A DNA stretch of 44,165 nt from a virus. The stretch is taken from the UHGV virus genome UHGV-1352852; one strand, 5' to 3'. Each line of letters begins with the position of its first letter. Position 1 is the first letter of the stretch. The notes under the pieces were generated by a model. The model did no database searches, had not been told where the DNA came from, and saw only the letters and a list, made by a program, of their open reading frames with translations. The position numbers and the translations under genes are program-made. This document shows positions 4,377 to 32,425 of the stretch, piece after piece.

Positions 4377-4405
4377 TTGCACACCCCAATATAATAGGGT
4401 ACTAT
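4377..4405 (+). promoter_or_regulatory. sigma70-like promoter TTGCAC-N17-TACTAT with embedded AATAG-N4-CTATT palindrome
   Basis: Member of a repeated promoter family (see findings); located ~30 nt upstream of the 4434 start codon. Confidence 0.5.
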
Positions 4406-4433
4406 TCACCTGTAACCTACTGAGGAAATAATT

Positions 4434-4760
4434 ATGCGTAAATTAGTATTAGCTCTGGGGTTTATGTCTTTTGCCGCTTTTGGGTCTCCGTGCGAACAGG
4501 TATTTAGTGAATCTGTTCTTATGACTTCTGGTGTTCTCGATAAAGCCGACCCTACTATTGTAAAGGCATTTAAGGACTCTACCGTTCGCGAGTGTGAGGC
4601 CGCTGTAGAGGTTGGTAAATCGGGCCTACCCCCGCAGGCCGTAACCTACACAGTGATACGTTCGGTAGAGAAAAACGGAGATGCTTTCTATAGCCTACTG
4701 ACAGCCACCCGTCTGCAAATGGTAATGACAGGGTGGGCGATAGGCGCAGAAAGTAAATAG
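4434..4760 (+). CDS. small secreted protein (Sec signal peptide), moron
   Basis: N-terminus MRKLVLALGFMSFAAFG is a typical signal peptide; GAGGA RBS; plus-strand gene inserted within the minus-strand tail module. Confidence 0.6.
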   Translation: MRKLVLALGFMSFAAFGSPCEQVFSESVLMTSGVLDKADPTIVKAFKDSTVRECEAAVEVGKSGLPPQAVTYTVIRSVEKNGDAFYSLLTATRLQMVMTGWAIGAESK

Positions 4761-4825
4761 TCGCCTTTATTTAAAGGAATGCACTGTGGTTAAATAGGAC
4801 AAATCCTAAACACGAGGAAGTAAGC

Positions 4826-5956
4826 ATGGCCCAGAAGAAAATAACCGACGAACAGTTACAGGAAGAATTGAACGCCGGGATGAAGATTATTGATATCGCC
4901 CGTAAATACGGCATCTCAGACCGCGTTATTCGTATCCGTAAAGCGAAGCTGGCTAAGAAAGGTGTAGGCCACGGGCGCGACGTTAGTCACCTTGTGCCGG
5001 ACGGCTACAAGATTAAAGGCACGTCGTCCCTGGTGGACGAGTTCGGCAACACTAAGTTGCAATGGGTTAAGACTGACACCGATGCTGAACGTCAGGTCGA
5101 GTTGATGAAAGCCGTAATTGAAGGCATGAAGTCAGAGATTACACCTGTTGCGCCTGTTAAAGCGACTCGCGCCAAACGCGACGATAAACTTCTCAATCTT
5201 TACACTGTGTCTGATTTCCATCTCGGTATGCTTGCATGGGCAGACGAGAGCGGCGACGACTGGGACATGAAGATTGCAGAAGACCTGTTCTCTCGATGGT
5301 TCGACGCGGCGTTTCAGAAAGCACCGGACGCGGGAACAGGAGTTATTAATCTGCTAGGAGACTTCGCGCACTTCGATAGTCTTGATGCCGTTACCCCTGA
5401 GTCGCGTCATGTGTTAGACGCCGATACTCGCTATCAGAAACTAGTTCGCTACATGATTCGTATGGTGCGTCGTGTTGTCGATATGGCGCTTGTTAAACAT
5501 CACACAGTCAAACTCTTAATAGTTCAAGGTAACCACGACCCTGTAGGCTCTGTATGGCTCGCCGAAATGTTCACGGTTTTATACTCAAACGACAGCCGAG
5601 TGATTGTCGATACGTCACCAGACGTTTACAAGATGGTGCAACACGGCAAAACGACGTTGTTCTTTCACCACGGGCATAAATCGCGCTTCGATGCTATCGA
5701 ACCGGTTATGATTGCCAAGTTCCGCAAAGCGTTCGGCGAGAGTGTTTACAGCTACGCCCACGTAGGCCATCTGCACCACCAGAAGATTGTAGAAAGCCGT
5801 AACATGGTTGTTGAGCAACACCGCACCTTAGCGGCTAAAGACGCCTACGCCTCCCGCGGCGGATGGATGTCGGGCCGCAGTGCTAATGTAATTACTTATA
5901 GCGCCGAATATGGTGAGGTCGCACGTTTAACTATTTCACCGGAGATGCTGGGATGA
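4826..5956 (+). CDS. HTH domain fused to a calcineurin-like metallophosphoesterase
   Basis: N-terminal HTH (IIDIARKYGISDRVIRIRKAKL); ordered metallophosphoesterase motifs DFH, GDFAHFD, GNHD, FHHGH, GHLHH; GAGGAAG RBS. Confidence 0.75.
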   Translation: MAQKKITDEQLQEELNAGMKIIDIARKYGISDRVIRIRKAKLAKKGVGHGRDVSHLVPDGYKIKGTSSLVDEFGNTKLQWVKTDTDAERQVELMKAVIEGMKSEITPVAPVKATRAKRDDKLLNLYTVSDFHLGMLAWADESGDDWDMKIAEDLFSRWFDAAFQKAPDAGTGVINLLGDFAHFDSLDAVTPESRHVLDADTRYQKLVRYMIRMVRRVVDMALVKHHTVKLLIVQGNHDPVGSVWLAEMFTVLYSNDSRVIVDTSPDVYKMVQHGKTTLFFHHGHKSRFDAIEPVMIAKFRKAFGESVYSYAHVGHLHHQKIVESRNMVVEQHRTLAAKDAYASRGGWMSGRSANVITYSAEYGEVARLTISPEMLG

Positions 5957-6183
5957 CTTCAAAATACAACCGAACAATGACAAACATTCACGGCAGCACT
6001 ATGACAGTAGACGTTTATGATGTTCTCCGTGCTTTCGATATCCGTGACCCGGCGCTACAGCACGCATTGAAGAAGCTGTTGTGTATGGGCCTGCGCGGTC
6101 ACAAGGATACCGGAACAGACTTAGCGGAAGCAATTGAAAGTCTGGAGAAGTTACGGGAATACCGAAGCAATATTGATGAGTAA
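5953..6183 (+). CDS. small helical phage protein (possibly DUF3310-like, from recollection)
   Basis: 76-aa ORF whose start overlaps the preceding stop (ATGA); segment VDVYDVLRAFDIRDPALQHALKKLLCMGLRG resembles small lambdoid-phage proteins. Confidence 0.45.
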   Translation: MTSKYNRTMTNIHGSTMTVDVYDVLRAFDIRDPALQHALKKLLCMGLRGHKDTGTDLAEAIESLEKLREYRSNIDE

Positions 6184-6210
6184 GAAAAGGCCCCTTTCGG
6201 GGCCTTAGTT
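6184..6210. terminator. bidirectional rho-independent terminator
   Basis: GC hairpin AGGCCCCTTTCGGGGCCT with A-run on one side and T-rich tract on the other; separates the plus-strand cassette from the convergent major tail gene. Confidence 0.6.
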
Positions 6211-7377
6211 TTATGCGTAGGTGATACGCTGAATAACAATAGACGACTGGTACTGGTTGCCAGTAGCCTGGCCTTCAATAGACTGAGTGATTGACTCAGG
6301 TCCGCCAATCTCAGGTGTAACCGCTGTCAGTTCCGCACGTTTTAAACTGAAAGACATAGCCCCGTTTACCCCCGCCAGAATAGAGTTAATCTCTACCTGC
6401 TGTTCGTTGATAAACTTCTGAATCATAGCCATGTCGTACAGCTTACCAGAGATAGAGAAGGTGTTAGCCGCGCGGCTACGCTCCACAAACGCCACGTTAG
6501 TGTTGCCGAGTTCGAACTGAGCGGACGCGCTGTTGTCGTTGGTGATGGCCAGGCTGTCGCAGCGCAACGGTGTTGAGCCATCGAACACAGAAACGTCAAC
6601 CGAAGAGAACGGCTCGTCACCAAACGTGACAGAGGAGAAATCAGAACCTGTCGGCTGCGTGGCGAGAATCTCCTGACTGCGACCGATGAACGGGAAGCTG
6701 CCAGTTACCATCGCGTTAACGGCCTGCTCAATAGTGAAGCCAGAAACTTCCACGCCTTTGGTCAGCGTGTACGCGTCGGCCCCACCACACTGGCCTTTGT
6801 ACCAGGTGAGAATAGAGAACGTCTTACACTGGCTACCGGTTTCCAGCTTATCGCCAGTTTTAGCCGCAGTAGTGGCGGTCTCAGTGGTCAGAGTATGTTG
6901 GGTACCAGCACCGGTGACAACTGTCGCACTTACCTCGGTTACGATAAACGGTTTGGCGTTATCGCCAGTTAAATCGGTGAACGCGATTAAGTCCCCCACT
7001 TCAACGCCGTCAGAAATAAAGCTACCTTCTGCACGGGTGAATGTCTTTCCCGCCGGTGCGACGGTAATAGACAGCCCGGACAGAGAAACGCCGGATTGCC
7101 ACGTAGAGCCTAAAGCCCCGGCTAACCAGTCGTCCTGGCTTTTCGAGCTAAGCTCAATAGCGTATTCTCCGCTAACCTGCTTGTTGCCGGTGCGGATGGA
7201 TGTAGTTTCACGGCTGCCGTCAAGTTCATTGGAGGTCAGCGTGTCGCGGGTAATGGCCGGAACACCGCCCGTATTGCGCAACGGCGACCATACCGGGTTA
7301 TCCGGTGTTACGCCCGGGGTCACTTCCGCCACATAGAATTGCGCGGTATTCGCGCCCTTAAAAGGAGTTGTAGCCAT
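6211..7377 (-). CDS. major tail protein (tube)
   Basis: Track ORF 6211..7383; ATG at 7377 preceded by AAGAGG. Thr/Ser/Gly-rich 388-aa protein positioned before the chaperone pair. Confidence 0.5.
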   Translation of the reverse strand: MATTPFKGANTAQFYVAEVTPGVTPDNPVWSPLRNTGGVPAITRDTLTSNELDGSRETTSIRTGNKQVSGEYAIELSSKSQDDWLAGALGSTWQSGVSLSGLSITVAPAGKTFTRAEGSFISDGVEVGDLIAFTDLTGDNAKPFIVTEVSATVVTGAGTQHTLTTETATTAAKTGDKLETGSQCKTFSILTWYKGQCGGADAYTLTKGVEVSGFTIEQAVNAMVTGSFPFIGRSQEILATQPTGSDFSSVTFGDEPFSSVDVSVFDGSTPLRCDSLAITNDNSASAQFELGNTNVAFVERSRAANTFSISGKLYDMAMIQKFINEQQVEINSILAGVNGAMSFSLKRAELTAVTPEIGGPESITQSIEGQATGNQYQSSIVIQRITYA

Positions 7378-7379
7378 AT

Positions 7380-7796
7380 TCACAGCCTCTTGGTGAATGC
7401 AATAAAGTTAATTGACAATGGCCGTTTGGCCCATCCGTTTTCTACAATCAGCGGCCCCAGGCTAACCGATTGAACCTCGGCGCAGATGTCGTTACGTGAA
7501 AATGACTTACCTGCTTTAAACGCCGTGTTAAGTAAGTCTGCCATTTTATTGATTGGCGCGCTACCTTTCACCGATGCGTAGTTAATGTCGACCTGATAGA
7601 TACCAGAGCGTTGTTCCGTGAAGAACAAATCCGCCTGCTCGGTATCCGCGAGTAGCATGTAACTCGCCAGATACGGGGTATCGGTTGACGTCGGCGCGTC
7701 GATGTTTTCAAGTGCAACCTTGATGCCGTTGGCGGTTCCGAAGGCTACCAGCGGCACATCGAACGCTTTTGTTAAGTCCTCAAAGTAGCCCATCAT
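7380..7796 (-). CDS. tail completion / head-tail joining protein
   Basis: 138-aa ORF in a run of translationally coupled small genes between capsid and major tail genes. Confidence 0.4.
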   Translation of the reverse strand: MMGYFEDLTKAFDVPLVAFGTANGIKVALENIDAPTSTDTPYLASYMLLADTEQADLFFTEQRSGIYQVDINYASVKGSAPINKMADLLNTAFKAGKSFSRNDICAEVQSVSLGPLIVENGWAKRPLSINFIAFTKRL

Positions 7797-8638: not shown

Positions 8639-9253
8639 TTACGCGGCCTCCAGTCTCGAGATAACCAGTAGCGCGGATGGCGCGGTGCCCCATGCGGTTA
8701 CAGTAGCTGCTTGTGGGTATACGCCGCCGAAGTTAGTTCCGGCGCTATCTCGCATAATCTGAACAGCAAACGTCTGACCTGCGGTAGGGTTAATAACGAC
8801 GCGGGATTCAATAGGAATGGTCACATCCGCGCTGACCAGTTTCGTAGCTGCCGGAGATCCGTATTGAGTGCCGTTTATTAAAATGCGTGATAGCAGAATA
8901 GACGTCCCGCTCGCACCAGTACGACCAGCCTGTAACTTGATGCGAACGGCGTAGTTACCCGCGGCGTTGAACGTAACCAGCCCCGCAGCATTAATCATTA
9001 CCGGGTCGGATGTACTTCCCTGAGCGGAGCCGAAAGTTAACTGCAACGCCGTGTCCGTCGCTGTTGGCGCCTGTATTACGGTAGACGCAGCGCGAAGGAC
9101 TTCAACCTCTTTAACCCCCGGAGTGGCGTAAATAGGTGAGTCGGCCATCTGTGTCATTACTTCGCGTAACTTCTCGGGGGTGATAAGCCCGGTGGTGTTA
9201 TCGGGAAGGTTCGCTCCGATAAGGGTAAACATCTCTGATTTAGTCTTCGCCAT
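8639..9253 (-). CDS. virion structural protein
   Basis: 204-aa ORF in the head-tail connector region; Thr/Ala-rich beta-type composition. Confidence 0.4.
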   Translation of the reverse strand: MAKTKSEMFTLIGANLPDNTTGLITPEKLREVMTQMADSPIYATPGVKEVEVLRAASTVIQAPTATDTALQLTFGSAQGSTSDPVMINAAGLVTFNAAGNYAVRIKLQAGRTGASGTSILLSRILINGTQYGSPAATKLVSADVTIPIESRVVINPTAGQTFAVQIMRDSAGTNFGGVYPQAATVTAWGTAPSALLVISRLEAA

Positions 9254-13112: not shown

Positions 13113-13128
13113 AACTATTCGAATAGTT
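13113..13128. promoter_or_regulatory. perfect 16-bp palindrome AACTATTCGAATAGTT
   Basis: Read directly; same AATAG/CTATT half-sites as the operator family, in inverted arrangement, in a 375-bp intergenic region. Confidence 0.3.
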
Positions 13129-13180
13129 TATTCTAACATTTACAATTCGGTGGAATAACTGGAATACGTAAATAAATAGT

Positions 13181-13209
13181 TTGCGCACACCAACATAACA
13201 GGGTACTAT
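13181..13209 (+). promoter_or_regulatory. sigma70-like promoter TTGCGC-N17-TACTAT with embedded palindrome
   Basis: Near-identical to the copies at 4377 and 16229; ~28 nt upstream of the 13237 start. Confidence 0.5.
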
Positions 13210-13236
13210 TCAGTTAATTTAAACAGGAGATGAAAA

Positions 13237-13758
13237 ATGGTTACTACAGTAATTACTTTCCCTGCGTATGTAGGGGCGAAAATATGCAGGGCTAAAAATG
13301 ATGTTCGCTACTATTTGAACGCTTTTTACATAGACCCTGAAGGATTGATAGTGTCTACGGACGGTCATAGATTGTTCTGCGACAATGTGAAGACCAACGT
13401 TGAGAAAGGGACTCTCATAGACATCAAAGGGAGAGAGCCTTCTAAATTTAACTACGCGGAGGTAAACCACGACAACGGCAGTGTATCTTTCTATGACGAT
13501 AATCGTGCGCTTATATGTACACTTCCGGTAGATGTTGTAGAAGGAAACTTTCCTGACTGGAGACGCGTGGCGCACATCACACCGGGTGTTGTCGATAGTA
13601 TAGGGTTCACCCTGCGTTATTTGGCAGACGCGTACAAGATTTCTAAGGCATACAAAAATGAAATTGCTCGTTTCGATTTCCAGGACCAAACCAGAGGATG
13701 TAAAATACTATTTTCAAACACGGCCTTTATGGTGTTAATGCCTGCGCGATTTAAATAA
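13237..13758 (+). CDS. beta sliding clamp (DnaN)-derived mini-protein
   Basis: Carries DnaN hallmark motifs in order: DVRYYLN, TDGHRL, GNFPDWRRV, IGFTLRYLADA and C-terminal FMVLMPARF (compare E. coli DnaN DVRYYLNG, TDGHRL, GRFPDYRRV, IGFNVSYVLDV, YVVMPMRL). AGGAGA RBS; terminator downstream. Confidence 0.7.
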   Translation: MVTTVITFPAYVGAKICRAKNDVRYYLNAFYIDPEGLIVSTDGHRLFCDNVKTNVEKGTLIDIKGREPSKFNYAEVNHDNGSVSFYDDNRALICTLPVDVVEGNFPDWRRVAHITPGVVDSIGFTLRYLADAYKISKAYKNEIARFDFQDQTRGCKILFSNTAFMVLMPARFK

Positions 13759-13761
13759 AAC

Positions 13762-13785
13762 TAGGGCCCCATACGGGGCCTTTTA
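13762..13785 (+). terminator. rho-independent terminator
   Basis: Hairpin GGGCCCCATACGGGGCC followed by TTTT, directly after the DnaN-like gene. Confidence 0.55.
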
Positions 13786-14247
13786 TCATTCTGGCTTAGT
13801 GACCTTCGCCGCTTTACTGAAGGCCTCTACGCCATCGGCATCGGTAACCTTGACGAAGTATTCACCGACTGCATTAACCGTCAGAGACAAAGCCTCTTCA
13901 GGTGCGTTTACCACTTCCTTACCGTCTTTGTACCAGGTCAGCACATATGGCGCTTTACCAGCCTTAACTTCGACAGTGAGAGTCGCGCTGCCGTCTGTCA
14001 GTTCGGTATCCTGCGGTTGCGCAGAGAAATACACGTCTCCAGCGTCTGCCAGATACGGAATCTCGTAAAGCATACCTGCGGTCGGTAGCGCAATACCAGT
14101 TTTATCTGCAAACGGCATATCGTCTACAGGTGTACCGAGTACACTTTCATCTTCAATAAATACCACGTTCTCACCGGAGCCAGACACACGGGCGTACTGG
14201 ACTACGCGACGCGACGGTACGTCAGTTACTTTGAAAAAGCCCATCAT
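13786..14247 (-). CDS. Ig-like domain structural protein
   Basis: Segment TLTVEVKAGKAPYVLTWYKDGKEV...GEYFVKVTDADG is Ig-like; downstream of the head-morphogenesis gene. Confidence 0.45.
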   Translation of the reverse strand: MMGFFKVTDVPSRRVVQYARVSGSGENVVFIEDESVLGTPVDDMPFADKTGIALPTAGMLYEIPYLADAGDVYFSAQPQDTELTDGSATLTVEVKAGKAPYVLTWYKDGKEVVNAPEEALSLTVNAVGEYFVKVTDADGVEAFSKAAKVTKPE

Positions 14248-16184
14248 TATTCCCCTTTCAGATAATCAGCAACACGTTTATCGAGTTCCGCCATCTGCTT
14301 AAGCGTGAGCGGACGCCCAAAACCATCTACAGATATTACGCGAAACTCCTCTGGTGATATACCGCTGTTACGGAAAATCTTACCGCGAACAGGGCCGAGC
14401 GCCTGGTCCTGAAACCATGCGGGCTGTTGTTTAAGGAACTCGTAGTAGGTTGTGTCCGCGCTTACCTGAGTACCGCCGTCCGCCCCGCGTGCCGCGCGTT
14501 TTGCGCCTTTATCAAGGAAGTCGAACTCCGAGCTAATCACCGGGGCCGTGGTACTTCTGCAATTCGGATGCGCTGGCGGCATCGGCCCTTTTCCAATTTC
14601 CCACGTCATTCCGTCTCTGGCCCTGCAATTCTTGACTATCGCACTACCTGCTGTATAATATCCTTGACTACTAGAGAGGGTATAAACATGGCACGTTCTA
14701 AACTCGACGCTTATGCGGATGATATTTGTTCTTTGTACCGAGATGGCACTCCCGCCAGCATCATAGCCAAGAATTACGGCGTCACTACCACCACGGTAAC
14801 AACATTTCTCAAGAAGCTCGGACTCATGCATGATCGACCCCGTGGTTGGGTTTCTAACGACACCATTTTGAATCAAAAAAGGGCTATAGAATTGTTCGAG
14901 TCCGGCGTCCCGCCTATTGAGTGCATAAGAAGGACCCAAGTAAGCAAAACAGTTTTCTATTCTATGGTCAAAACACTTGGCCTCGCTAAGCGCGGGCACA
15001 CTCACAGGACATTCACCCCGGAGGAGAAAATCGCCAGAGCTATCGTCCGACAGCAAAGCGGCGCTATGAATAAGACTGAAACCCTCGCTTTTGAATTGTT
15101 TAATTCCGCTGGCGTGGACGTAGTTCCGCAGTTTGCAATCGGCCCGTACAATGTCGATTTTGCCATTGAGTCCCACTCCATCGCCATAGAAATCTGTTGC
15201 CGCGGGACTCGTGCTTACCATTTTCCTGATGGGGAAATCAGCGAGCGTATTAAAAATATAATCCGCTCTGGCTGGCATGTTTATGTTCTTCACTGTTTCG
15301 AGCACAGTCACTTTGTCAACAGTGGTATACAAGACATGCTTAGTTGGATCGAGTTCATCAAGCGGAGTCCATCCGTATTGCGTGAGTACAGGGTGTTTCG
15401 GGGTGCCACTGAACTTCTCGCCGTTGGAAAGTTCGATGGTAAAGATTTTTCCTGAATAGAGTCCGCGCATTACCGCGTCCATCCCCGCGATGGGCGCTAA
15501 TTCTGTTTCAGCCGTGAAACACGTTGTACTGGTACGGCTGTCCAGCGTTGACACCCACTCGTATTTCTCGATGATGTCGTCGTTCTGGCGGTACGTCTCG
15601 TTACGGGCTTCGTTGGATACGTGAGCCAGCGCCGTACGTATTACGGTAGCGGCGTTACGCTCAGAGATGTCGGCCAGTCCGCCAGCGCCTACAACATTCT
15701 TAACAATCTGCCGTGTGGTTTGACCCTGAACAAAGCCCATCTTAACGCCAGTTACCAGGCGCGATACTTCTGTTTCACCCCAGCCACCCATCAGCTTAGT
15801 GAAATCTACTGGCTTGTCGCTTAACGACAGAGGCTGAAACTCGGCAGCGGCCCACACCTGTTCGGCAGTAGGCGTAACAAATTCAGCGTTGACGTTGGCC
15901 GTGAGTGTCTTTACATTCCACTCAGCCTCATACGCCGCCAGGTCCTTAAGGTCTTCTGTCAGCTTTGTTTGCCAGTCACCCGTAAGTCCTGTCAGTGCTT
16001 CTTCTAGGTCGCGTAACAATTTATTCAGTCGCGCAGTGCTTCGCCCGTCGTCACCGAATAACAGCACCTGCCGTTTGATTTCATCCCGCATCTCCTGAAT
16101 GAACGGTGTGAGGTCTTTCACTTCGCCGGATGCGGTGCGTTGCAGCCATATCTGGTGGCTGATTAGGGATGTAAGTAAGCTCAT
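14247..16184 (-). CDS. head morphogenesis protein (Mu F / SPP1 gp7-like), intein-containing
   Basis: Track ORF 14247..16241; ATG at 16184 (MSLLTSL) with GGAGGG RBS. C-terminal PPAHPNCRS motif typical of the Mu F family; central ~300-aa insertion with intein motifs. Confidence 0.7.
   Translation of the reverse strand: MSLLTSLISHQIWLQRTASGEVKDLTPFIQEMRDEIKRQVLLFGDDGRSTARLNKLLRDLEEALTGLTGDWQTKLTEDLKDLAAYEAEWNVKTLTANVNAEFVTPTAEQVWAAAEFQPLSLSDKPVDFTKLMGGWGETEVSRLVTGVKMGFVQGQTTRQIVKNVVGAGGLADISERNAATVIRTALAHVSNEARNETYRQNDDIIEKYEWVSTLDSRTSTTCFTAETELAPIAGMDAVMRGLYSGKIFTIELSNGEKFSGTPKHPVLTQYGWTPLDELDPTKHVLYTTVDKVTVLETVKNINMPARADYIFNTLADFPIRKMVSTSPAATDFYGDGVGLNGKIDIVRADCKLRNYVHASGIKQFKSEGFSLIHSAALLSDDSSGDFLLRGECPVSVPALSEAKCFDHRIENCFAYLGPSYALNRRDAGLEQFYSPFLIQNGVVRNPTTGSIMHESELLEKCCYRGGSDAVILGYDAGGSAISVQRTNIIRISVEFRTCHVYTLSSSQGYYTAGSAIVKNCRARDGMTWEIGKGPMPPAHPNCRSTTAPVISSEFDFLDKGAKRAARGADGGTQVSADTTYYEFLKQQPAWFQDQALGPVRGKIFRNSGISPEEFRVISVDGFGRPLTLKQMAELDKRVADYLKGE
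14632..14659 (+). promoter_or_regulatory. sigma70 promoter TTGACT-N16-TATAAT for the intein-embedded endonuclease gene
   Basis: Near-consensus -35 and -10 hexamers read directly; GAGAGGG RBS follows ~8 nt before the ATG at 14688. Confidence 0.55.
14688..15455 (+). CDS. homing endonuclease-like protein: two HTH motifs + Vsr-like (DUF559) PD-(D/E)XK nuclease domain
   Basis: Internal ATG of track ORF 14427..15455. HTH segments SIIAKNYGVTTTTVTTFLKKLGL and IECIRRTQVSKTVFYSMVKTLGL; C-terminal core YNVDFAIESHSIAIEI...GWHVYVL; encoded antisense within the intein. Confidence 0.6.
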   Translation: MARSKLDAYADDICSLYRDGTPASIIAKNYGVTTTTVTTFLKKLGLMHDRPRGWVSNDTILNQKRAIELFESGVPPIECIRRTQVSKTVFYSMVKTLGLAKRGHTHRTFTPEEKIARAIVRQQSGAMNKTETLAFELFNSAGVDVVPQFAIGPYNVDFAIESHSIAIEICCRGTRAYHFPDGEISERIKNIIRSGWHVYVLHCFEHSHFVNSGIQDMLSWIEFIKRSPSVLREYRVFRGATELLAVGKFDGKDFS

Positions 16185-16228
16185 ATGCCCTCCTGTAGTA
16201 TCGCCAGTGTAACGCATAAAAATAATAT

Positions 16229-16257
16229 TTGCAGACACCAATATAATAGGGTACTAT
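16229..16257 (+). promoter_or_regulatory. sigma70-like promoter TTGCAG-N17-TACTAT with embedded palindrome
   Basis: Third near-identical copy; leader shares TATCGAAACGAGA with the copy at 26613. Confidence 0.5.
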
Positions 16258-16291
16258 TCAGCTATCGAAACGAGAGATAAGGGATTTAAAG

Positions 16292-16504
16292 ATGAAAGAA
16301 TTAATTATCGCGGTATTGACGACACTGGCAGTTTCACTGGTAATTGCTGCTGGTGTACGTAGCTTAGATAAACACGGGTGTGAGAACTACGGAGATGTCA
16401 CAGGCAGAGAGGTAATGTATAGTTACACAACTTGTTATGTGAAAACTGATAGAGGTTTTATCCCTCGTGAAGAACTTAATTTCAGAGCAGCGACACATGA
16501 ATAA
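16292..16504 (+). CDS. small membrane-anchored protein, moron
   Basis: 70 aa; N-terminal TM segment LIIAVLTTLAVSLVIAAGV then a short Cys-containing domain; AAGGGA RBS; terminator downstream. Confidence 0.5.
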   Translation: MKELIIAVLTTLAVSLVIAAGVRSLDKHGCENYGDVTGREVMYSYTTCYVKTDRGFIPREELNFRAATHE

Positions 16505-16505
16505 A

Positions 16506-16532
16506 ACTAAGGCCCCGAAAGGGGCCTTTTTC
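16506..16532. terminator. bidirectional rho-independent terminator
   Basis: Hairpin AGGCCCCGAAAGGGGCCT flanked by an A-run and TTTTT; lies between the convergent 16292 gene and the portal gene. Confidence 0.55.
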
Positions 16533-20442: not shown

Positions 20443-20625
20443 TTACCACACTATCTCATCACCAAGCCACGCCGTTTCTCGTATATCGTCAACCACACAC
20501 GCGGCGTGCTCACGGCTAATTGCAAAAATGTAGAAACTAAACTTCTTCCCGTCGGCGTCGATGTGGTTAACCGAGTAGGGCTTCCACAGGACGCCATCGA
20601 TAACTACTGGCTCAGGCGCTTTCAT
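20443..20625 (-). CDS. hypothetical protein
   Basis: 60-aa track ORF in the co-oriented early block. Confidence 0.35.
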   Translation of the reverse strand: MKAPEPVVIDGVLWKPYSVNHIDADGKKFSFYIFAISREHAACVVDDIRETAWLGDEIVW

Positions 20626-24773: not shown

Positions 24774-24993
24774 TGGTTTCCCCTAACACCGACTCAATAA
24801 TGTAAGTATGGACCGCATGGGTTAATGTGTCGCCGTATGACACGCCTGGCGTACCAGGGATACCCGCCATCCAACGCATATCACCTTTCGACTGGCGACC
24901 TATCATGTGGATGCCGTATCTCTCTACAAGGATGTCCACCTCATCGAGAATCCCCTTGCGGCGTAACAGCGCACGTGCTTTTGCGGGGGTCAT
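24766..24993 (-). CDS. hypothetical protein
   Basis: 75-aa track ORF in the co-oriented early gene run. Confidence 0.4.
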   Translation of the reverse strand: MTPAKARALLRRKGILDEVDILVERYGIHMIGRQSKGDMRWMAGIPGTPGVSYGDTLTHAVHTYIIESVLGETNE

Positions 24994-25188
24994 TGCGCAA
25001 CCTCATACAAAGTTTCCGGGTAACCCCATGTTGCTTTAGCGACAAGATTATTACCGCTATCTATGTAGATAGACTCTGGCGTACCCGCATTAATAACCAT
25101 GTGATACATAAGACCTTCTACTGTGCTGAAAAACTCATCTTTAGTTACTTCTTTCATCTTCCGTCTCTCCTCTCGTTTGTGTAAATGA

Positions 25189-25217
25189 ATAGTAGCCTAT
25201 TCTATCTTAGTGTGCAA
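25189..25217 (-). promoter_or_regulatory. sigma70-like promoter TTGCAC-N17-TACTAT (minus strand) with palindrome
   Basis: Same promoter family, read on the minus strand; upstream of a small minus-strand ORF starting near 25157. Confidence 0.45.
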
Positions 25218-25530
25218 ATAAATTTTATTGGTGTTTTAACGATAATTGTTCGCCGCGAATCCAATAGTACCTCGGGCGTCGTGCCAACTGACGCCACCTC
25301 ATAACCCGGTACTTGTTGCCGTCTGACGCAACAATAAGCCCGAATCGCTTTTTTCCGTTTCTACCGGCCCAGGTCACGATGTCATTCAGTTTCATTGTTG
25401 CATCTCCTGCAATAATCGCTTCTATTGTTGCGTTCGGTGAAAGTGTCGCTTTTTGACGACACTAATCTAAAGTTGTACGCTGCTGTGTAGCAGCGTAAGT
25501 CACTCAGTCAAATAGTAACCTATTGACCTG

Positions 25531-26579: not shown

Positions 26580-26612
26580 AACCCCACTCCTCTGTCTCGT
26601 TTCGATAAGTGA

Positions 26613-26641
26613 ATAGTATCCTATTATGTTGGGGTGCGCAA
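26613..26641 (-). promoter_or_regulatory. sigma70-like promoter TTGCGC-N17-TACTAT (minus strand) with palindrome
   Basis: Minus-strand reading GCGCACCCCAACATAATAGGATACTATTCAC is near-identical to the plus-strand copies at 4377, 13181 and 16229. Confidence 0.5.
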
Positions 26642-27001
26642 GAGAATAGTTACGTTGCCGTTGTGATTCTTCGGGGAAGGTTGTGCCTTTATTCTTATTA
26701 CTTGGTAACTAAAGGGCAGGCCTTAAGGCCTGCCCAATAATCGTTACATTTTTACGGTTGCGAATCTACGGCATAGGAAGAAACAGTAGATATTTCAGCT
26801 GGTTACTTCTTTAAATGAGATTTAGATACACTTATCCTTAAACCCCAAGGCAAGCATCTCAGCTGTCTGGGAGGGGTTGACGAATCCCTCGGGGAGGGTT
26901 CGTCAACTCCGTAATACATACAAGTCCCAAAACCATTATACAAACATGAGTCAAGAACTTTCAATAACTTTTTTGTAAAGATTAAATATTGCAGGGATTG
27001 G

Positions 27002-27030
27002 TTGCTTTTACATTCCCGCTATCCTATACT
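27002..27030 (+). promoter_or_regulatory. sigma70 promoter TTGCTT-N17-TATACT for the rightward replication block
   Basis: Read directly; ~30 nt upstream of the 27063 start with AGGAGA RBS between. Confidence 0.4.
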
Positions 27031-27062
27031 CGGTTTCACTAAACAAACAGGAGATATAAAAA

Positions 27063-27245
27063 ATGCAGCATTACATGACACAGAATGAAGTCGCCGAACG
27101 TATCGGGGTAACACGTCAGACAATTAATAACTGGTTGCGCAGTGGTAAATTCCCGGATTGTTGTATTAAGGTTATGGGTCGCCGTTTACCCGGTACATTT
27201 GATCGAAATAAAGTTGAAGCGTGGATTAAGGAGAACGTGAAATGA
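27063..27245 (+). CDS. AlpA/excisionase-type HTH DNA-binding protein
   Basis: MTQNEVAERIGVTRQTINNWLRSGKFP is a typical AlpA/Xis-like HTH. Confidence 0.55.
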   Translation: MQHYMTQNEVAERIGVTRQTINNWLRSGKFPDCCIKVMGRRLPGTFDRNKVEAWIKENVK

Positions 27246-27532
27246 AAGGTGTAATTTTCCACAATAAAGCAGAAAACGAAGTGTATATGGTCCACACCGT
27301 GGCGGGAGAGTTCGCCTTATGTTTCAATATCTCTTGTCACCTTGATACCTACCGGCCTTTCTGCGTAGAAACAGAAATGAAGCTAATTAGCTTACGCCAA
27401 CTAAGCACCATGTCGGCATCGCTTAACGTAGGAGATAATATCGAGTATATCGACTTCTATTTCGGCGACGATTTGGTCGAGGAATATTTTGAAGAGTATA
27501 AAAATTTGCTGGAAGAGTTGGCTAAACGGTGA
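27242..27532 (+). CDS. hypothetical protein
   Basis: 96-aa track ORF with start/stop overlap to the previous gene. Confidence 0.4.
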   Translation: MKGVIFHNKAENEVYMVHTVAGEFALCFNISCHLDTYRPFCVETEMKLISLRQLSTMSASLNVGDNIEYIDFYFGDDLVEEYFEEYKNLLEELAKR

Positions 27533-27726
27533 AAAGAAACCCCAACGCCAGAACGTCGGGGTTAAAGTACAAATCATCAAAGTAAGCACAAGGATTATAC
27601 AATGACAAAGTTGATAGTTCCACAGCTACGCCGCCAGAAACACGGCGCTGATTTCTTCGCACCGGTAAAGATGAACCGCGCAATGCGCCGTATGCAGGAA
27701 GCCTTAGAACGTGCGGAGAAAAAGAA

Positions 27727-29946
27727 ATGAATATTGTTTTTGCAACGCTGCGTAACACATTCGATAAAAACCCTGTAGCGCGTGAAATGCCGCTGGAGCA
27801 GTTCGTAGAGTATGTCTGTGATACATCAAAGCGTTTGTCCGTGGACCCGTCATGGACTAAAGAAGAGTACGACGCTGCCAAGATTAAACAGAAAGCTATT
27901 GCGCCTGTTGGTGGCCGCCGTAAAAACGCTATTCTGGAAGACAGTGTGGTTAAGTTCGACTTCGACCATCTAAACCGTACTCAGTACCGCGACCTTACCC
28001 GCAAATTCAAGATCGCACCGTTCTTCAATATTCTGCACACAACGGCATCGCATCAACATGCGTGTAAAAACGGTGATTACGCCTTCCGCGTTCTCGTACC
28101 GGCTCGCACGCCGTTTAACTCTAACGACGCGTGGATGGTTCAACGGGCTATTTGTGCAGAGTTAGAAATAGACGAAGCATTGCGCGACCACTGCACGGAA
28201 GATGGCAACCGCCTCATCTACCTGCCACATAGAGAGTCGAAGATAACGGTTACAGAAGGGCGTGTTATCCGTGCCGAGCGGTACATCAAGAAAGCCGAAG
28301 AGATGGGGTTGCGTAAACGCGAAGCTAAGACACTTGCCGCCGATGAGCATGGGCTTAACGCAGATATAGCGCATTTCTGCGAAGCCGAGCTTGGCCTTGA
28401 CGTCTTATCTTCTGGTCGCGGGTACGAAGTGCCATGCCCTAACGAACATCTGCATACAGGCAAGGGCTCCACCAGCATCATGCTCGACGGTAAAGAAGTT
28501 CGCTTTGTCTGCCAGCATACAAACAACGGCGCTTGCACCGAGCTTAACCGTAGGCAGCATTTGGCCCTGCGTATGTGTGGCCTACCCGACGAGCTTAACG
28601 TAGATAAGCAACCTATCAGCATTAACAGCATTCGTGCGGCTCTACCTGATTTACCGGAAGAAGAGATTGAAGAACTACACCGCACAGAGAACGAGGATCC
28701 AGTAACTTGCAGCCTCGACGACCTGGAAGACGAGGGCTCAGAAGAGGACGAGCTACCGGAACCGGTAAAGGCTGATTTCGTCGTTGAGGGGTACATGCCG
28801 TCAGATTGCATATGGGATATTGTCGGTGAATCTGGTACGTACAAATCATTCTATACGCTGGGGATGATGTACCTGAGCGCCGCCGGATACCGGTTTGCAG
28901 GGGCGGATACCCAGCGTTGCCACCATTTCTATATCGATGGCGAAGGCGGTGCAGCTACACGTACACGTATTGATGCGCTAGCGGCTAAATATGGCGAGGA
29001 AGGTAAAGATTATGTACATGTTATCGATATGGGCGAAGTCGGAAAACTGAAAAGCCTGATTAAGTTAATGCGTGAAACTGCTGGCGATGAGCCAATTGGG
29101 GTGGTCGCGTTTGATACCCTTAACCAGACGCTAGCCCTGACGATTGATAAGTTCGACGAGAACAGTTCGTCCACGGCAATCGGTATGGGTAAAGTTATCG
29201 CCATCCTGAAAGAAGTACGTGATGCGACTAAAGCCGCGGTGGGCGTTGTCCACCATACGCCGAAGGGTGGAAAGAAAGCCCGTGGCAGCGGGGCACTGTA
29301 TGCAGGTGTCGACGTCGAGCTGACAATCGAACGCGCTACCGACCGCCAGATAAACGTATACCACTCGAAATTTAAGCACGGGCCTCAACAGAAAACCGTC
29401 GGCATGGTGCTTGAGTCTGTACAGTTCCGTGAAGCCCCGCCGCCGAAAGAATACCGTGCTGTTGAGTTCCTGGGTAGCACAGAAGAATACGGCACAATCG
29501 TAAACCTGGACCTTCCTGAGCCGCATAAGGCACTTGTGCTGATGCCGTGGGGCTTCGAGCCGTTCAAAACCGACGAGGAGAAAGAGCGCGAAGAAGGGCT
29601 GGCAAAGGAAGGTAAAGAAAACGTAAAGAATGCCGTAAAACGTGGGAAGGATGAAGTAAGGAAGGAGTCAATACTTTCGGCACTGGAAGACCTGCAACAG
29701 TCAGATGACACAGGTCGCGGTTTTACTCAGCAGCAGATAGTTGCCCGTTCCGGTGACTTTTCTGTGACTAACACCCATCTTGATAAAATGCTGAAAGATG
29801 GTGAACTAATGCTAGGCTGTGATGCTAATGGCGAAGTAGTACCGAGAACGTATCGTATACCTGAAAGAATAGGGGATAGACTAAGACCGAAGACAATATA
29901 CGAACCGAATGAAATGCTGGTAGTGACAGAAGAGGATTTGGAATAG
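27727..29946 (+). CDS. DNA primase/helicase (primase-like N-terminal domain + RecA-like AAA_25-type ATPase)
   Basis: Central Cys/His cluster (CPNEHLHTGKG...CQHTNNGAC), Walker A-like GESGTYKS, Walker B VVAFDTL, downstream HHTPKGG; 739 aa. Confidence 0.65.
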   Translation: MNIVFATLRNTFDKNPVAREMPLEQFVEYVCDTSKRLSVDPSWTKEEYDAAKIKQKAIAPVGGRRKNAILEDSVVKFDFDHLNRTQYRDLTRKFKIAPFFNILHTTASHQHACKNGDYAFRVLVPARTPFNSNDAWMVQRAICAELEIDEALRDHCTEDGNRLIYLPHRESKITVTEGRVIRAERYIKKAEEMGLRKREAKTLAADEHGLNADIAHFCEAELGLDVLSSGRGYEVPCPNEHLHTGKGSTSIMLDGKEVRFVCQHTNNGACTELNRRQHLALRMCGLPDELNVDKQPISINSIRAALPDLPEEEIEELHRTENEDPVTCSLDDLEDEGSEEDELPEPVKADFVVEGYMPSDCIWDIVGESGTYKSFYTLGMMYLSAAGYRFAGADTQRCHHFYIDGEGGAATRTRIDALAAKYGEEGKDYVHVIDMGEVGKLKSLIKLMRETAGDEPIGVVAFDTLNQTLALTIDKFDENSSSTAIGMGKVIAILKEVRDATKAAVGVVHHTPKGGKKARGSGALYAGVDVELTIERATDRQINVYHSKFKHGPQQKTVGMVLESVQFREAPPPKEYRAVEFLGSTEEYGTIVNLDLPEPHKALVLMPWGFEPFKTDEEKEREEGLAKEGKENVKNAVKRGKDEVRKESILSALEDLQQSDDTGRGFTQQQIVARSGDFSVTNTHLDKMLKDGELMLGCDANGEVVPRTYRIPERIGDRLRPKTIYEPNEMLVVTEEDLE

Positions 29947-29947
29947 G

Positions 29948-29976
29948 TAAAAAAGAAAGGGGCTTTAAGCCCCTTC
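29948..29976 (-). terminator. rho-independent terminator for the XRE regulator gene
   Basis: Minus-strand hairpin AAGGGGCTTAAAGCCCCTT followed by a T-rich run; the gene stop codon lies in the hairpin. Confidence 0.45.
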
Positions 29977-30180
29977 ACCGAACGCCAGCCACTTGGCGTC
30001 TACTTCCAGCACTTCCGCCAGTTTAAACAGCGTTGCCGGGCGGACGTCCTGAGTTACCCCAAGTGCCAGCTGGTTAATCGCGCCCTGTGAAACGCCAGCC
30101 AGGACAGCCAGACGGCGCTGGGAGATGCCGAGTTCTTTGCGGCGTTGTTCTACACGGATGCCTAGTTCAGAGGGTTGCAT
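29965..30180 (-). CDS. XRE-family (Cro/CI-type) HTH transcriptional regulator
   Basis: RRKELGISQRRLAVLAGVSQGAINQLALG is a classic XRE HTH; transcribed opposite to the surrounding replication genes; GGAG RBS. Confidence 0.7.
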   Translation of the reverse strand: MQPSELGIRVEQRRKELGISQRRLAVLAGVSQGAINQLALGVTQDVRPATLFKLAEVLEVDAKWLAFGEGA

Positions 30181-30210
30181 ATCAATTACTCCTTAGTTAG
30201 TTGATATGCG

Positions 30211-30273
30211 AATAGTACCATATTAATTATTTTAGAAAAACCCATTGACATGTGAATAGTTCGCTATTATAGT
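30211..30273. promoter_or_regulatory. operator/promoter region: two AATAG-N4-CTATT palindromes and TTGACA-N17-TATAGT promoter
   Basis: Palindromes at ~30211-30224 and ~30255-30268; plus-strand TTGACA (~30245) and TATAGT (~30268) bracket the second; lies between the divergent XRE gene and the 30305 gene. Confidence 0.5.
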
Positions 30274-30304
30274 TAGCCCATACCAAACGAGAGGAGAGAA
30301 ACAA

Positions 30305-30805
30305 ATGTTAGAACAATTTCTGAAATTACTGGAACGTTTCGTAGTTGCGCATGAACTGATTGCTGCGAACAGTGTGAAACAGGTTGTTCAGGTTGCCGCG
30401 CCGCTGGAAGTAGAGACGGTAGTGTATGCCAAAGAAGCGGTAGCCGAGTGCACCGAAGAAGCAACAAAAGAAATCCCGGTCGAAGGTGAAAACATCGTCG
30501 ACACTAAACCGGCGGAAGACGAGAAGCCTAAACGCAAGCCGCGTAAAGCTAAAGCAGAGGAGCCTACGCCAGAGCCGGAAGAAGAGAAAGAAGAAGTCGA
30601 TTACCAGTCTCTTCGGGACCAGATTCAGGCTATCGACGATGCGATTAACGAAGGTCCAAGCGATGCCGCGTGCGACGATTCTGACGAACTGCTGGAAGAG
30701 TTCACCGGTAAGAAGATGAAGATTGCCGCGATTAAAGATGAAGACCTGGCAGAGTACCTGGAACGCCTGACGGCGATCAAGAACAAGTATTTCGAAGAAG
30801 AATAA
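30305..30805 (+). CDS. acidic protein of unknown function
   Basis: 166 aa, Glu/Asp/Pro/Lys-rich low-complexity centre; GAGAGGAGAGA RBS; hairpin terminator downstream at ~30810-30832. Confidence 0.45.
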   Translation: MLEQFLKLLERFVVAHELIAANSVKQVVQVAAPLEVETVVYAKEAVAECTEEATKEIPVEGENIVDTKPAEDEKPKRKPRKAKAEEPTPEPEEEKEEVDYQSLRDQIQAIDDAINEGPSDAACDDSDELLEEFTGKKMKIAAIKDEDLAEYLERLTAIKNKYFEEE

Positions 30806-30848
30806 TTATCTGGCGGCCTTCAGGCCGCTTTAACTGAGGGTCGGAATT

Positions 30849-31121
30849 ATGATTTACCAACTCTACCGCGCCGTTGACAGGCGGGATAACACAGATGCGC
30901 TATGGCTGTTGCGTGCGCCGTCCGGTGCGCACCAGATGGAAGAGATGGCGTACTTAGGCAAAGTGCCACGGCCTAAAGACATAGGCCGCCACGTGTCACA
31001 TATTAAGCGCACGACTTTCGCCAAACCTGACTTTTATGTCTTCGAGTCGATGTATGGGTGGGCTATGCACTGCGACCATAAGACACGACATTTAATTGAC
31101 CAGTGGGAGAGCAGGGTATGA
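30849..31121 (+). CDS. hypothetical protein
   Basis: 90-aa track ORF; its stop overlaps the next start (ATGA). Confidence 0.4.
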   Translation: MIYQLYRAVDRRDNTDALWLLRAPSGAHQMEEMAYLGKVPRPKDIGRHVSHIKRTTFAKPDFYVFESMYGWAMHCDHKTRHLIDQWESRV

Positions 31122-32392
31122 TTTTAAAGGAACGCGGCGGCAATAACGATGTGCACGCCTTACTGTCGCCGTCTGGTGCTAAAAAGTGGCTGGCGTGCAG
31201 TGCATCACTGGCCTGTGAAAAAGATATTCCTAACACGTCAGGTAAAGCCGCCGTATTAGGAACGGCTATGCACACCATAGCTGAGATGCACTTAAACCAG
31301 TACATCAAAGGCACTGCGTTGCCGTTAGAGCGCGAAGTAGGTGCTTACGTGCTGGATGAGGGTAAAGGCCAGATTAAGGCGCTAATCAGTCCTATGAAAG
31401 GCGCGGTACTGATTACGGCGGACATGATTGAGCAGGTGCGCAAGTACACCGACTACTGCAAAGCGATTATCGACGTAGCGACTTATGCCAAGCTCGAGAT
31501 GCGCGTAAATCTTACTCAGGTGCTACATCCTGGCTACAAAGTACCCGCTGATGGTGAAGAAGGCGAGGAGGATGATTTAGAGACGTTCGGAACCGCTGAC
31601 CTTGTTGCCGTGCTAGAAAAAGCAAATACAGACGAATTTATACTTAATATCACAGACCTGAAAACAGGACGGCATCGCGTCGAAGCGAAAGAAAACAAAC
31701 AGCTTATGCTTTACGCTCTTGGTGTTTATCGCCGACTCAAGAGACGTTATAACATCACCGTGGTTCGTCTGGTCATCTTCCAGCCATACGCGGGCGGTGC
31801 GTCGGAGTGGGACATCTCGGTTGAAGGTCTGGAACTGTTCGCTAAGTTCGCACAGAAACGCGCGCTGTTAGCGCTTGATGCTTATTTCCGCGGTAAGAAG
31901 AACCTGAAAGCGTCGGACTTCAGGCCGTCGGTCGATGGTTGTCAGTGGTGTAGGTTCTCGGAACAATGCGCCGCGCGTACAAAGACGGTTAATTCCGTAC
32001 TGGCGGAAGAACTGGAGGACGACTTTGCGCTGGAACTCACTCCTGAGCAACTCGTAGCTGAGTATGAGAAGTTGCCGATGCTGCGCCAGCACATCGACAA
32101 GGTTGAGAAAGCTATGGCTGCCGCGTTGCATTCCGGTAAGAAAGTTCCAGGGTACAAACTGGTTGAGGGTCGCCCGGGTAATCGTGCGTGGAAAGATACC
32201 GATGCAGTATTCGAGAAGTACGGTACTATGCTGCAAAAGGTAGTTCTCATGACGCCCACCGAAGCGGTTAAAGTTATACCGGAAGAAGAACTGAAAGACT
32301 TTATTACCCGTAAGCCAGGCGCACCATGTGTCGCAACGGCAGACGACAAACGTCCTGAGTGGGATCAGGTTAGTGAAGAAGATTTAGAATAA
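31118..32392 (+). CDS. PD-(D/E)XK RecB/Cas4-family exonuclease
   Basis: Nuclease motifs ADLV, ITDLK (D/E-x-K), QLMLY (QxxxY) plus C-terminal Cys cluster CQWCRFSEQC and an N-terminal Cys. Confidence 0.7.
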   Translation: MILKERGGNNDVHALLSPSGAKKWLACSASLACEKDIPNTSGKAAVLGTAMHTIAEMHLNQYIKGTALPLEREVGAYVLDEGKGQIKALISPMKGAVLITADMIEQVRKYTDYCKAIIDVATYAKLEMRVNLTQVLHPGYKVPADGEEGEEDDLETFGTADLVAVLEKANTDEFILNITDLKTGRHRVEAKENKQLMLYALGVYRRLKRRYNITVVRLVIFQPYAGGASEWDISVEGLELFAKFAQKRALLALDAYFRGKKNLKASDFRPSVDGCQWCRFSEQCAARTKTVNSVLAEELEDDFALELTPEQLVAEYEKLPMLRQHIDKVEKAMAAALHSGKKVPGYKLVEGRPGNRAWKDTDAVFEKYGTMLQKVVLMTPTEAVKVIPEEELKDFITRKPGAPCVATADDKRPEWDQVSEEDLE

Positions 32393-32396
32393 AGTG

Positions 32397-32425
32397 TTGA
32401 CACCTGAATAGTAAGCTATTATAGT
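32397..32425 (+). promoter_or_regulatory. sigma70 promoter TTGACA-N17-TATAGT with AATAG-N4-CTATT palindrome in the spacer
   Basis: Same arrangement as at 30245; upstream of the 32479 gene. Confidence 0.5.

Follow-up and report, generated by a model that had tools for sequence, protein, structure and literature searches.

A palindrome shared by dispersed sigma-70-like promoters of a Kagunavirus genome as the probable operator of a 434 Cro-like protein

What connects the promoters of genes inserted against the late operon of a phage with those of its replication genes? The question is raised by the virus genome UHGV-1352852, a stretch of 44,165 nucleotides (nt) that was analysed at full length and is called the window below, in which the palindrome AATAG-N4-CTATT (the dyad) recurs in front of genes of very different kinds. 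The original prediction had described a promoter family carrying this palindrome, and had proposed that three plus-strand inserts in the structural module are morons transcribed early, together with the early genes, under one operator-binding regulator. Over most of its length the window shares ~91% identity with Escherichia phages hz69, XY2, fEg-Eco06 and Bas74, and it is a genome-length Kagunavirus (Guernseyvirinae), a virulent siphophage of Escherichia coli; its relatives are virulent siphophages with genomes of 41-45 kb (PMC11990801 and annotated genomes). On the minus strand a block of small open reading frames (ORFs) runs leftward from ~26580, with the genes for lysis, packaging, head and tail beyond it. 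AlpA-like and primase-helicase genes (27063-29946) and then replication genes (30305-38390) are on the plus strand, and between these two units lies one leftward gene (29965-30180) for a protein of the XRE family. The dyad is probably the operator of this 434 Cro-like protein of 71 amino acids (aa), which would turn down the non-late transcription units, and its copies in the structural module, with their terminators, form the borders of exchangeable cassettes.

Motif search of the whole window, a check that the original prediction had itself suggested, returned eight exact matches to AATAG-N4-CTATT (4393, 16245, 25188, 25511, 26612, 30255, 32407 and 36726), while the mean expected by chance was 0.04 and none of 100 dinucleotide-preserving shuffles reached eight. 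The predicted figures, eight copies against 0.04, were thus right, but the list behind them included two sites with one mismatch, 13197 (AACAG...CTATT) and 30211 (AATAG...ATATT), and missed the exact copies at 25511 and 36726, the latter being outside its range. Both one-mismatch sites stand in the same promoter context as the exact ones, which brings the dyads in promoter-like contexts to ten. Five other one-mismatch matches (13106, 14948, 21550, 27887 and 41420) are not the same element and were set aside.

Hexamers separated by 17 base pairs (bp), the geometry of sigma-70 promoters, were found at five sites of one class (class A) and three of another (class B). Class A has the form TTGCRC-N17-TACTAT and matches the consensus at 7 of 12 positions; it is exact at 4377 and 13181 on the plus strand and at 25217 and 26641 on the minus strand, and has one mismatch at 16229 (plus strand). 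Class B has the form TTGAC(A/G)-N17-TATAGT, matches the consensus at 10-11 of 12 positions and occurs on the plus strand at 30245 and 32397 (TTGACA, as described before) and at 36716 (TTGACG). If transcription is assumed to start 7 nt after the -10 hexamer, the class A dyad is centred at about -12.5 and spans about -19 to -6, with its right arm within the -10 hexamer, and the class B dyad is centred at about -18.5 and spans about -25 to -12, within the spacer; the register differs by 6 bp between the classes. All of these promoters face a gene with a Shine-Dalgarno sequence of the GGAG type, whose start codon lies 27-53 nt past the -10 hexamer (28, 27, 34, 31 and 33 nt at the five class A sites, in agreement with the 25-35 nt first reported). 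Judged by sequence, the elements would be promoters for the sigma-70 polymerase of the host.

Class A promoters are found on both strands. A1 (TTGCAC-N17-TACTAT, 4377-4406, plus strand, exact dyad 4393-4406) would drive the first insert of the structural module and has orthologues in XY2, Bas74 and fEg-Eco06. A2 (TTGCGC-N17-TACTAT, 13181-13210, plus strand) would drive the second insert; its dyad (13197-13210) has one mismatch (AACAG), whereas the dyad of the orthologous promoter has none in Bas74 and fEg-Eco06. A3 (TTGCAG-N17-TACTAT, 16229-16257, plus strand, exact dyad 16245-16258) belongs to the third insert, a cassette at 16224-16530. On the minus strand, A4 (TTGCAC-N17-TACTAT, 25188-25217, exact dyad 25188-25201) would drive a 55-aa ORF (24990-25157) and small ORFs downstream of it, and A5 (TTGCGC-N17-TACTAT, 26612-26641, exact dyad 26612-26625) stands first among the promoters of the leftward small-gene block. 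The leader TATCGAAACGAGA, said in the original prediction to be common to the copies at 16229 and 26613, is present in both.

The three class B promoters read rightward into the replication genes. B1 (TTGACA-N17-TATAGT, 30245-30273), divergent from the XRE gene and carrying the exact dyad O1 (30255-30268), would drive the genes from one for a 166-aa protein through one for a PD-(D/E)XK exonuclease. B2 (TTGACA-N17-TATAGT, 32397-32425, exact dyad 32407-32420) would drive the genes for a single-stranded DNA-binding protein and the DNA polymerase, and its orthologues in Jerseyvirus and in Serratia phage Smarc3 keep the arms of the dyad while the centre varies. B3 (TTGACG-N17-TATAGT, 36716-36744, exact dyad 36726-36739) would drive a 63-aa gene and a SNF2 helicase gene. 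The earlier statement that all copies are intergenic holds for the sites it referred to; the additional promoter B3 overlaps the last ~30 nt of a probable VRR-NUC ORF (36448-36747). Two further dyads have no complete promoter. An orphan exact copy (25511-25524, minus strand), with a TACTAT hexamer like a -10 element and no -35, lies just downstream of the DUF551 gene and is followed by hairpins, and an equivalent orphan follows the DUF551 gene of fEg-Eco06 (position 45415 there). The imperfect dyad O2 (AATAGTACCATATT, 30211-30224, minus strand) covers the TACTAT -10-like hexamer (30217-30212) of the XRE gene and is kept in XY2, fEg-Eco06 and Bas74; with its poor -35 and imperfect dyad, the XRE promoter resembles the -10 region of class A. 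The Rfam scan of the window gave no match.

The dyad forms part of an extended motif, TGAATAGTAnCCTATTATanTT, which is the 20-mer reported by PHIRE in published relatives. This 20-mer runs sense to the gene in class B and antisense to it in class A. Because it occurs in opposite orientations and in two registers, it does not behave as a directional promoter, and what is conserved is a symmetric site. An asymmetry of the flanks (TGAATAG at one arm, ATAATAG at the other) was considered as a directional signal and rejected, since Jerseyvirus has TAATAG at both arms; the same flank is not conserved in A4 or B3 either.

Comparison with other genomes points to an operator. The Kagunavirus fEg-Eco06 contains eight copies of AATAG-N4-CTATT (0.07 expected), the Jerseyvirus SP-101 five (0.02 expected) and the Jerseyvirus SETP7 five, and Smarc3 has one exact and two one-mismatch dyads in matching promoter contexts. 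In an alignment of 25 class A-like and 23 class B instances from seven genomes (the window, XY2, Bas74, fEg-Eco06, SP-101, SETP7 and Smarc3), the two 5-bp arms have the highest information content, equal to or above that of the -35 hexamer. In class B, N4 at the centre is essentially random (TTCG, TAAG, CGAA, TAGA, TACT, AACA and AATA) and the rest of the spacer varies as well, and in orthologous class B promoters the surroundings drift and the arms stay across phages of Escherichia, Salmonella and Serratia. An arm within the spacer has no known role in recognition by sigma-70. Conserved arms around a free centre are the footprint that a dimeric helix-turn-helix protein would be expected to leave on its operator. 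A scan of IMG/VR for the class A pattern gave seven Jerseyvirus-type contigs and otherwise chance or unrelated matches only.

The best candidate for the binding protein is encoded between two of the sites. The 71-aa XRE protein (29965-30180, minus strand) matches Pfam HTH_3 (2.3e-12) and is homologous to phage 434 Cro, which is likewise 71 aa long and comes closest in sequence among proteins of solved structure (PDB 1zug, E = 5.4e-7, residues 6-68 aligned); for a single-sequence AlphaFold2 model (pLDDT 84, five helices) the best Foldseek match was 2cro. 434 Cro binds as a dimer to operators of 14 bp, which is also the length of the dyad. Two dyads bracket the XRE gene: O1, which is exact and lies in B1, and O2, which has one mismatch and lies over the -10 hexamer of the gene itself, the two centres being 44 bp apart. 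This arrangement is kept in XY2, fEg-Eco06 and Bas74, in which the XRE gene is present but unannotated. The identity of XRE orthologues is 94% or more within Kagunavirus, and it is lower for those of Jerseyvirus (~52%) and of Cornellvirus-like phages (41-43%). The association of gene and sites suggests that XRE binds the dyad. An alternative binder is the AlpA-like HTH_17 protein (27063-27245), although proteins of the Xis/AlpA type usually bind direct repeats, not dyads.

If XRE is the binder, a dimer on the dyad would occlude RNA polymerase, and as the protein accumulates every non-late transcription unit would be turned down: the leftward small-gene block, the three replication units and the three opposite-strand units in the structural module. 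The XRE gene itself would also be turned down, more weakly, through the imperfect site O2. Such a design would resemble that of Cro at OL and OR. As with 434 Cro, the regulator is a small HTH_3 protein, for which 434 Cro is the best match in both sequence and fold, its gene lies between divergent promoters with one strong and one weaker site, and the dyads, like 434 operators, measure 14 bp, keep their outer bases around a free centre and overlap the core promoter. Unlike in the 434 system, the phage is virulent, about ten dispersed promoters with single sites take the place of two clustered operator regions, and a CI-length repressor partner, an integrase and a tripartite OR are all missing from the annotated relatives; a bistable CI/Cro switch is not found here, and the gene divergent from XRE encodes the 166-aa protein of unknown function. 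The half-site, AATAG in these predicted operators, is ACAA in 434. The XRE system is Cro-like in its proposed action and is not a lambdoid immunity region. The sites may also be compared with the stoperators of mycobacteriophage L5, which Brown et al. reportedly described in 1997 as asymmetric, orientation-dependent elements that block elongation. Like these, the dyads are many copies of one site dispersed in short intergenic regions, and one or two orphans (25511, and the third locus of relatives without the insert) lie outside promoters; unlike them, the dyads are symmetric and nearly all coincide with promoter cores.

Several observations weigh against this reading. In the Cornellvirus genomes SP-031 and SenTO17 the AATAG-N4-CTATT dyad is absent though XRE is kept (41-43% identity), and the analogous promoters have only a loose AT-rich dyad, ATA(T/A)TA-N6-TA(A/T)TAT, with no clear dyad beside the XRE gene. 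The link between protein and site is therefore without support from covariation, and the XRE recognition helices differ modestly among the three genera. The class A copies also share ACACCCCAAYAT and TCA beyond the dyad, and part of their similarity appears to be due to recent copying rather than to selection. The class A hexamers, with 7 of 12 matches, could need an activator. In a time course of the Kagunavirus K1B4, the Sie gene, which heads insert 1, and the gene for the DNA polymerase belong to the latest-peaking class (PMC12645636), a result at odds with an early regulon that is later shut off. Finally, a literature search for protein binding, mapped transcription starts or promoter studies in Guernseyvirinae yielded PHIRE lists only.

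Two other dyads were examined in this connection. The AT-rich sites of the Cornellvirus genomes (ATATTA-N6-TAATAT type; 14065, 26543 and 33279 in SP-031, 12633 and 35476 in SenTO17) number 4-5 at no more than one mismatch, against ~0.1 expected, with the -10 hexamer as right arm; they are not strictly symmetric and are absent beside XRE, and were rejected as evidence of regulator-operator covariation either way. The XRE region of Klebsiella phage VLCpiS11a has a different dyad, ATACTATAGTAT, which is uninformative.

An alternative that we regard as unlikely is that the dyad is an activator site, the promoters that carry it forming a delayed 'middle' class switched on by the AlpA-like HTH_17 protein (27063-27245) or by XRE acting positively. 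It would account for the weak class A hexamers (TTGCAC matches at 3 of 6 positions, TACTAT at 4 of 6), which fall below the 9-of-12 threshold of the promoter scan, and for a promoter-like site without a dyad in front of the AlpA-like gene (TTGCTT-N17-TATACT, ~27004-27032, read by eye). The K1B4 study sorted genes into three classes by peak time; only four genes are 'early', the orthologue of the AlpA-like gene among them, XRE falls into the 'middle' class, and the peaks of Sie and the DNA polymerase come later (PMC12645636). By synteny, a class A promoter would serve Sie in K1B4 and a class B promoter the polymerase, and their grouping fits co-regulation, not the 'early' expression claimed in the original prediction; the other half of that claim, a link between the three inserts and the remaining regulon, agrees with the presence of the same dyad in the three plus-strand inserts, the leftward small-gene block and the replication promoters. 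Phage reads in K1B4 peak at 8.9% and the infection looks poorly synchronised (PMC12645636). Given this and the coarse binning, the time course neither confirms nor refutes the promoter timing. The position of the dyad speaks against activation, because a protein bound over the -10 hexamer or the spacer would clash with sigma-70 unless it were of the MerR type. MerR-type activators act on over-long spacers of 19-20 bp, and all spacers here are 17 bp. Moreover, the class B promoters match the consensus at 10-11 of 12 positions and need no help, and the usual targets of Xis/AlpA-type proteins are, as said, direct repeats.

A dedicated reader of the dyad could also be dispensed with, if one promoter module had been copied or gene-converted and served mainly as homologous flanks for exchange in the manner of the T4-type elements discussed below. 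Replacement of cargo does break at the -10/dyad (4407-4409), at a start codon (13239) and at terminators, a whole promoter-to-terminator unit has moved between loci, and the class A copies share segments of spacer and leader beyond the dyad. Copying alone, however, would not keep both arms while N4 drifts, nor place the dyad in two registers, and the class B promoters, which are not associated with cargo exchange, keep the arms while centres and flanks diverge across genera, the Serratia phage included; as the whole explanation we find it distinctly unlikely. A host transcription factor whose site is exploited by the phage would suit the persistence of the dyad in phages of Escherichia, Salmonella and Serratia, hosts that share many regulators, but a phage-encoded Cro homologue stands between two copies of it, and we know of no E. 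coli regulator with the consensus AATAG-N4-CTATT (OxyR/LysR boxes are ATAG-N7-CTAT and ARG boxes TGAAT-N4-ATTCA), which makes this very improbable. Hardly credible at all is a promoter for a phage-encoded or phage-modified RNA polymerase. In fBC-Eco01 (PMC9825357) and Golestan (PMC7203180), PHIRE does report these 20-mers as 'phage promoters', with the consensus tgAATAGTa-ccTATTat-T and seven sites per genome; the two papers give 20-mers only, one assigning them to a phage RNA polymerase (PMC9825357), and contain neither the dyad and the two sigma-70 architectures nor the XRE link and the cassette structure. No RNA polymerase domain was found among the ten large ORFs of the window that were scanned and no such gene in annotated relatives, the 20-mer lies in either orientation and in two registers with respect to the gene that it precedes, and it is enclosed by canonical sigma-70 hexamers 17 bp apart. 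In its literal sense, a phage-encoded polymerase is refuted, which corrects the published attribution of the motif to an enzyme that these genomes do not encode.

The dyad promoters of the structural module also mark the borders of exchangeable DNA. Each plus-strand unit there ends in a hairpin of one family, AAGGCCCC-N4-GGGGCCTT, flanked by runs of A and T, and these hairpins score as terminators on both strands. One such bidirectional terminator closes insert 1 (6187-6206) and another insert 2 (13763-13782); hairpins of the same family follow the gene for the single-stranded DNA-binding protein (AGGCCC-N6-GGGCCT, 33126-33143) and end the rightward replication unit (38530-38547), where it converges with the tailspike gene.

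Insert 1 (cargo 4434-6183, plus strand) encodes a 108-aa protein of unknown function (phrog_14165), a 376-aa SbcD-like DNA repair exonuclease (phrog_704) and a 76-aa ORF. Compared with Bas74, fEg-Eco06 and SP-101, homology at this locus breaks at 4407-4409 (the end of the dyad), 4794, 5956 and 6180 (the terminator). The first gene is that of the 108-aa protein in the window and that of the Sie protein in relatives, Bas74 having an extra 38-aa ORF before it; the last is the 76-aa ORF in the window and is replaced by polynucleotide kinase and deoxynucleoside monophosphate kinase genes in fEg-Eco06, and SP-101 has Ant added beyond this position. The 76-aa ORF (5953-6183, plus strand) matches only the C-terminal third of PHROGs of ~235 aa (phrog_2452, positions 150-220; phrog_17613, 'ATPase') and probably represents a truncated remnant where the insert ends.

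Insert 2, at the spanin / Hoc-like locus, encodes a 173-aa protein that is clamp-like or belongs to phrog_3007 (13237-13758, plus strand). Homology to Bas74 and fEg-Eco06 spans promoter, leader and ATG, breaks at 13239 and resumes at 13757, and a 67-aa gene takes the place of this cargo in both phages. In SP-101 the whole cassette (13167-13765) is missing.

The third insert, between the portal and head-morphogenesis genes, is a complete mobile cassette (16224-16530, plus strand). It comprises promoter A3, the leader TATCGAAACGAGA, a gene for a 70-aa protein of unknown function (16292-16504) and a terminator (16509-16528); one border lies 5 nt ahead of the -35 hexamer and the other just beyond the terminator. 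Over 308 bp it shares 94.8% identity with the cassette at the spanin / Hoc-like locus of phage EC3-1, and a 51% homologue occupies that same locus in phiEap-2. At the portal / head-morphogenesis locus only the window is filled; the cassette is absent in fEg-Eco06 and Bas74, in which a one-mismatch dyad, AATAGCATACTATA (~8830-8880 in fEg-Eco06), abuts the resident terminator. This dyad, which is PHIRE site 1 in Golestan (PMC7203180), resembles a vacant landing pad or an orphan operator. Since the breakpoints (4407-4409, 13239/13757, 6180 and 16224/16530) fall at promoter or stem-loop motifs and a cassette recurs at another locus, the class A promoter and the terminator act as flanks for the swapping of cargo.

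In the Jerseyvirus genomes the portal / head-morphogenesis locus also holds a cassette (2504-2562 in SP-101, ~3974-4050 in SETP7), annotated as amidase in the former and as hypothetical in the latter, whose promoter, TTGACA-N17-TACCAT, has a long palindrome of its own, AAATGGTATAT-N-ATATACCATTT. Cassettes of this subfamily are thus not all wired to the AATAG dyad.

How far these inserts are morons, as they had been called, depends on the insert. They have their own promoters and terminators and lie among late genes, with presence or absence or alternative cargo among relatives. Insert 3 is a true moron, as are the variable first or last genes of insert 1, but the SbcD-like exonuclease of the latter recurs in each of the six Kagunavirus and Jerseyvirus genomes that were compared and so is a displaced DNA-metabolism gene, not a moron. 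The morons of the lambdoid phages HK97 and HK022, reportedly described by Juhala et al. and Hendrix et al. in 2000, are likewise genes with their own promoter and terminator amid a late operon, present or absent in close relatives, a description that insert 3 and the locus 2 cassette fit exactly. They differ in that the promoters here belong to the phage's own regulon and carry its predicted operator, there is no lysogen in which the genes could be expressed, and insert 1 holds a conserved DNA-repair nuclease. A second parallel is offered by T4-type phages, in which motifs made of an early promoter and a stem-loop (PeSLs) border indels and replacements and apparently mediate the shuffling of cargo by recombination (PMC2839356, PMC4122927). 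Here too a conserved promoter and a stem-loop stand at the borders of exchanged cargo. Unlike the compact terminator-promoter composite of PeSLs, they usually stand at opposite ends of a cargo that is transcribed against the late operon, an abutting (one-mismatch) dyad and terminator being seen only at the empty third locus of fEg-Eco06 and Bas74; there are only three hot spots, and the promoter carries a dyad operator.

At two of the inserts the element may face both ways. Sigma-70 matches on the opposite strand, with 9 of 12 positions each and thus better than those of class A itself, were found at A1 (GTTACA-N17-TATATT, 4416-4388) and A3 (TCGATA-N17-TATATT, 16268-16240); they overlap the dyads and face the late genes just past bidirectional terminators. 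At A2 there is no opposite-strand match of this kind, and the leader sequences vary with the cargo. It is conceivable, if rather doubtful, that the element is a portable bidirectional promoter-operator at which one Cro-like protein gates both directions. In that case a cassette would bring its own expression signal, a stop and a restart of the interrupted late transcript, and could land anywhere in the late operon without polarity.

In the literature searched, no prior account was found that treats the motif as a dyad or describes the two sigma-70 architectures, the 434 Cro-like candidate binder or the cassette structure. A familiar mechanism (Cro-type operator, morons) is met here in a setting where it had not been described, and the design is real but fairly ordinary. 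Should XRE act as proposed, the group would gain a transcription map of about ten early or middle promoters with a shared operator and a likely regulator, Cro-type control would be modestly extended to a genome-wide timer in a strictly virulent phage, and morons would be wired into the phage's own regulon instead of being independent of it. Kagunavirus and Jerseyvirus are common isolates for therapy and biocontrol, and the appeal of their small genomes as models for synthetic biology has been pointed out (PMC11990801). The structural module would provide three natural, insulated payload sites, each between a defined promoter and a bidirectional terminator, where natural exchange of cargo already takes place.

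The late strand has promoter-like sites of another kind. TGTACA-N18-TATAAT before terS (19858-19829) and TTGACT-N17-TATATT (21558-21530), both without the full dyad, each lie directly after a terminator, and SP-031 and Smarc3 have a similar CTATATAAT -10 region ahead of terS. They are candidate late promoters and fit a separate late class. Of the motifs considered as a common late-promoter signal in the window, TTAGAATAA is not enriched at one mismatch (10 matches, 9.2 expected), and GGAATAAYTGGAATA has a single exact copy, with weaker matches that look unrelated. A perfect 16-bp palindrome, AACTATTCGAATAGTT, at 13113-13128 consists of operator half-sites arranged back to back; it overlaps a late-strand TTGACT hexamer upstream of the spanin, scaffold and capsid genes, is kept in XY2, fEg-Eco06 and the Jerseyvirus SP-101, and may be a late-strand control site.

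Next to promoter A5, a near-consensus promoter on the minus strand (TTGAAA-N18-TATAAT, 26964-26935) has a strong terminator (26735-26714) ~200 nt downstream, and the interval holds no credible ORF. A 217-nt stretch within 26712-26964 (minus strand) folds at -77 kcal/mol (z = -5.7) and has no Rfam match; its conservation is 97% in XY2 and Bas74 and partial in SP-101, and fEg-Eco06 lacks it. The region 26712-26964 is a candidate phage small RNA.

Two proteins of the minus strand deserve mention. The 60-aa ORF at 20443-20625 has no Pfam match and is 98% identical to fEg-Eco06 g016, annotated as 'RNA polymerase inhibitor, similar to 2LMC_A', which we take to be the T7 Gp2-RNA polymerase jaw complex; the annotation is odd for a phage that lacks its own RNA polymerase. 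The head-morphogenesis (Mu F-like) ORF (14247-16241) is 664 aa long, compared with ~347 aa in XY2 and Bas74, and for the fEg-Eco06 homologue the annotation reports an inserted intein.

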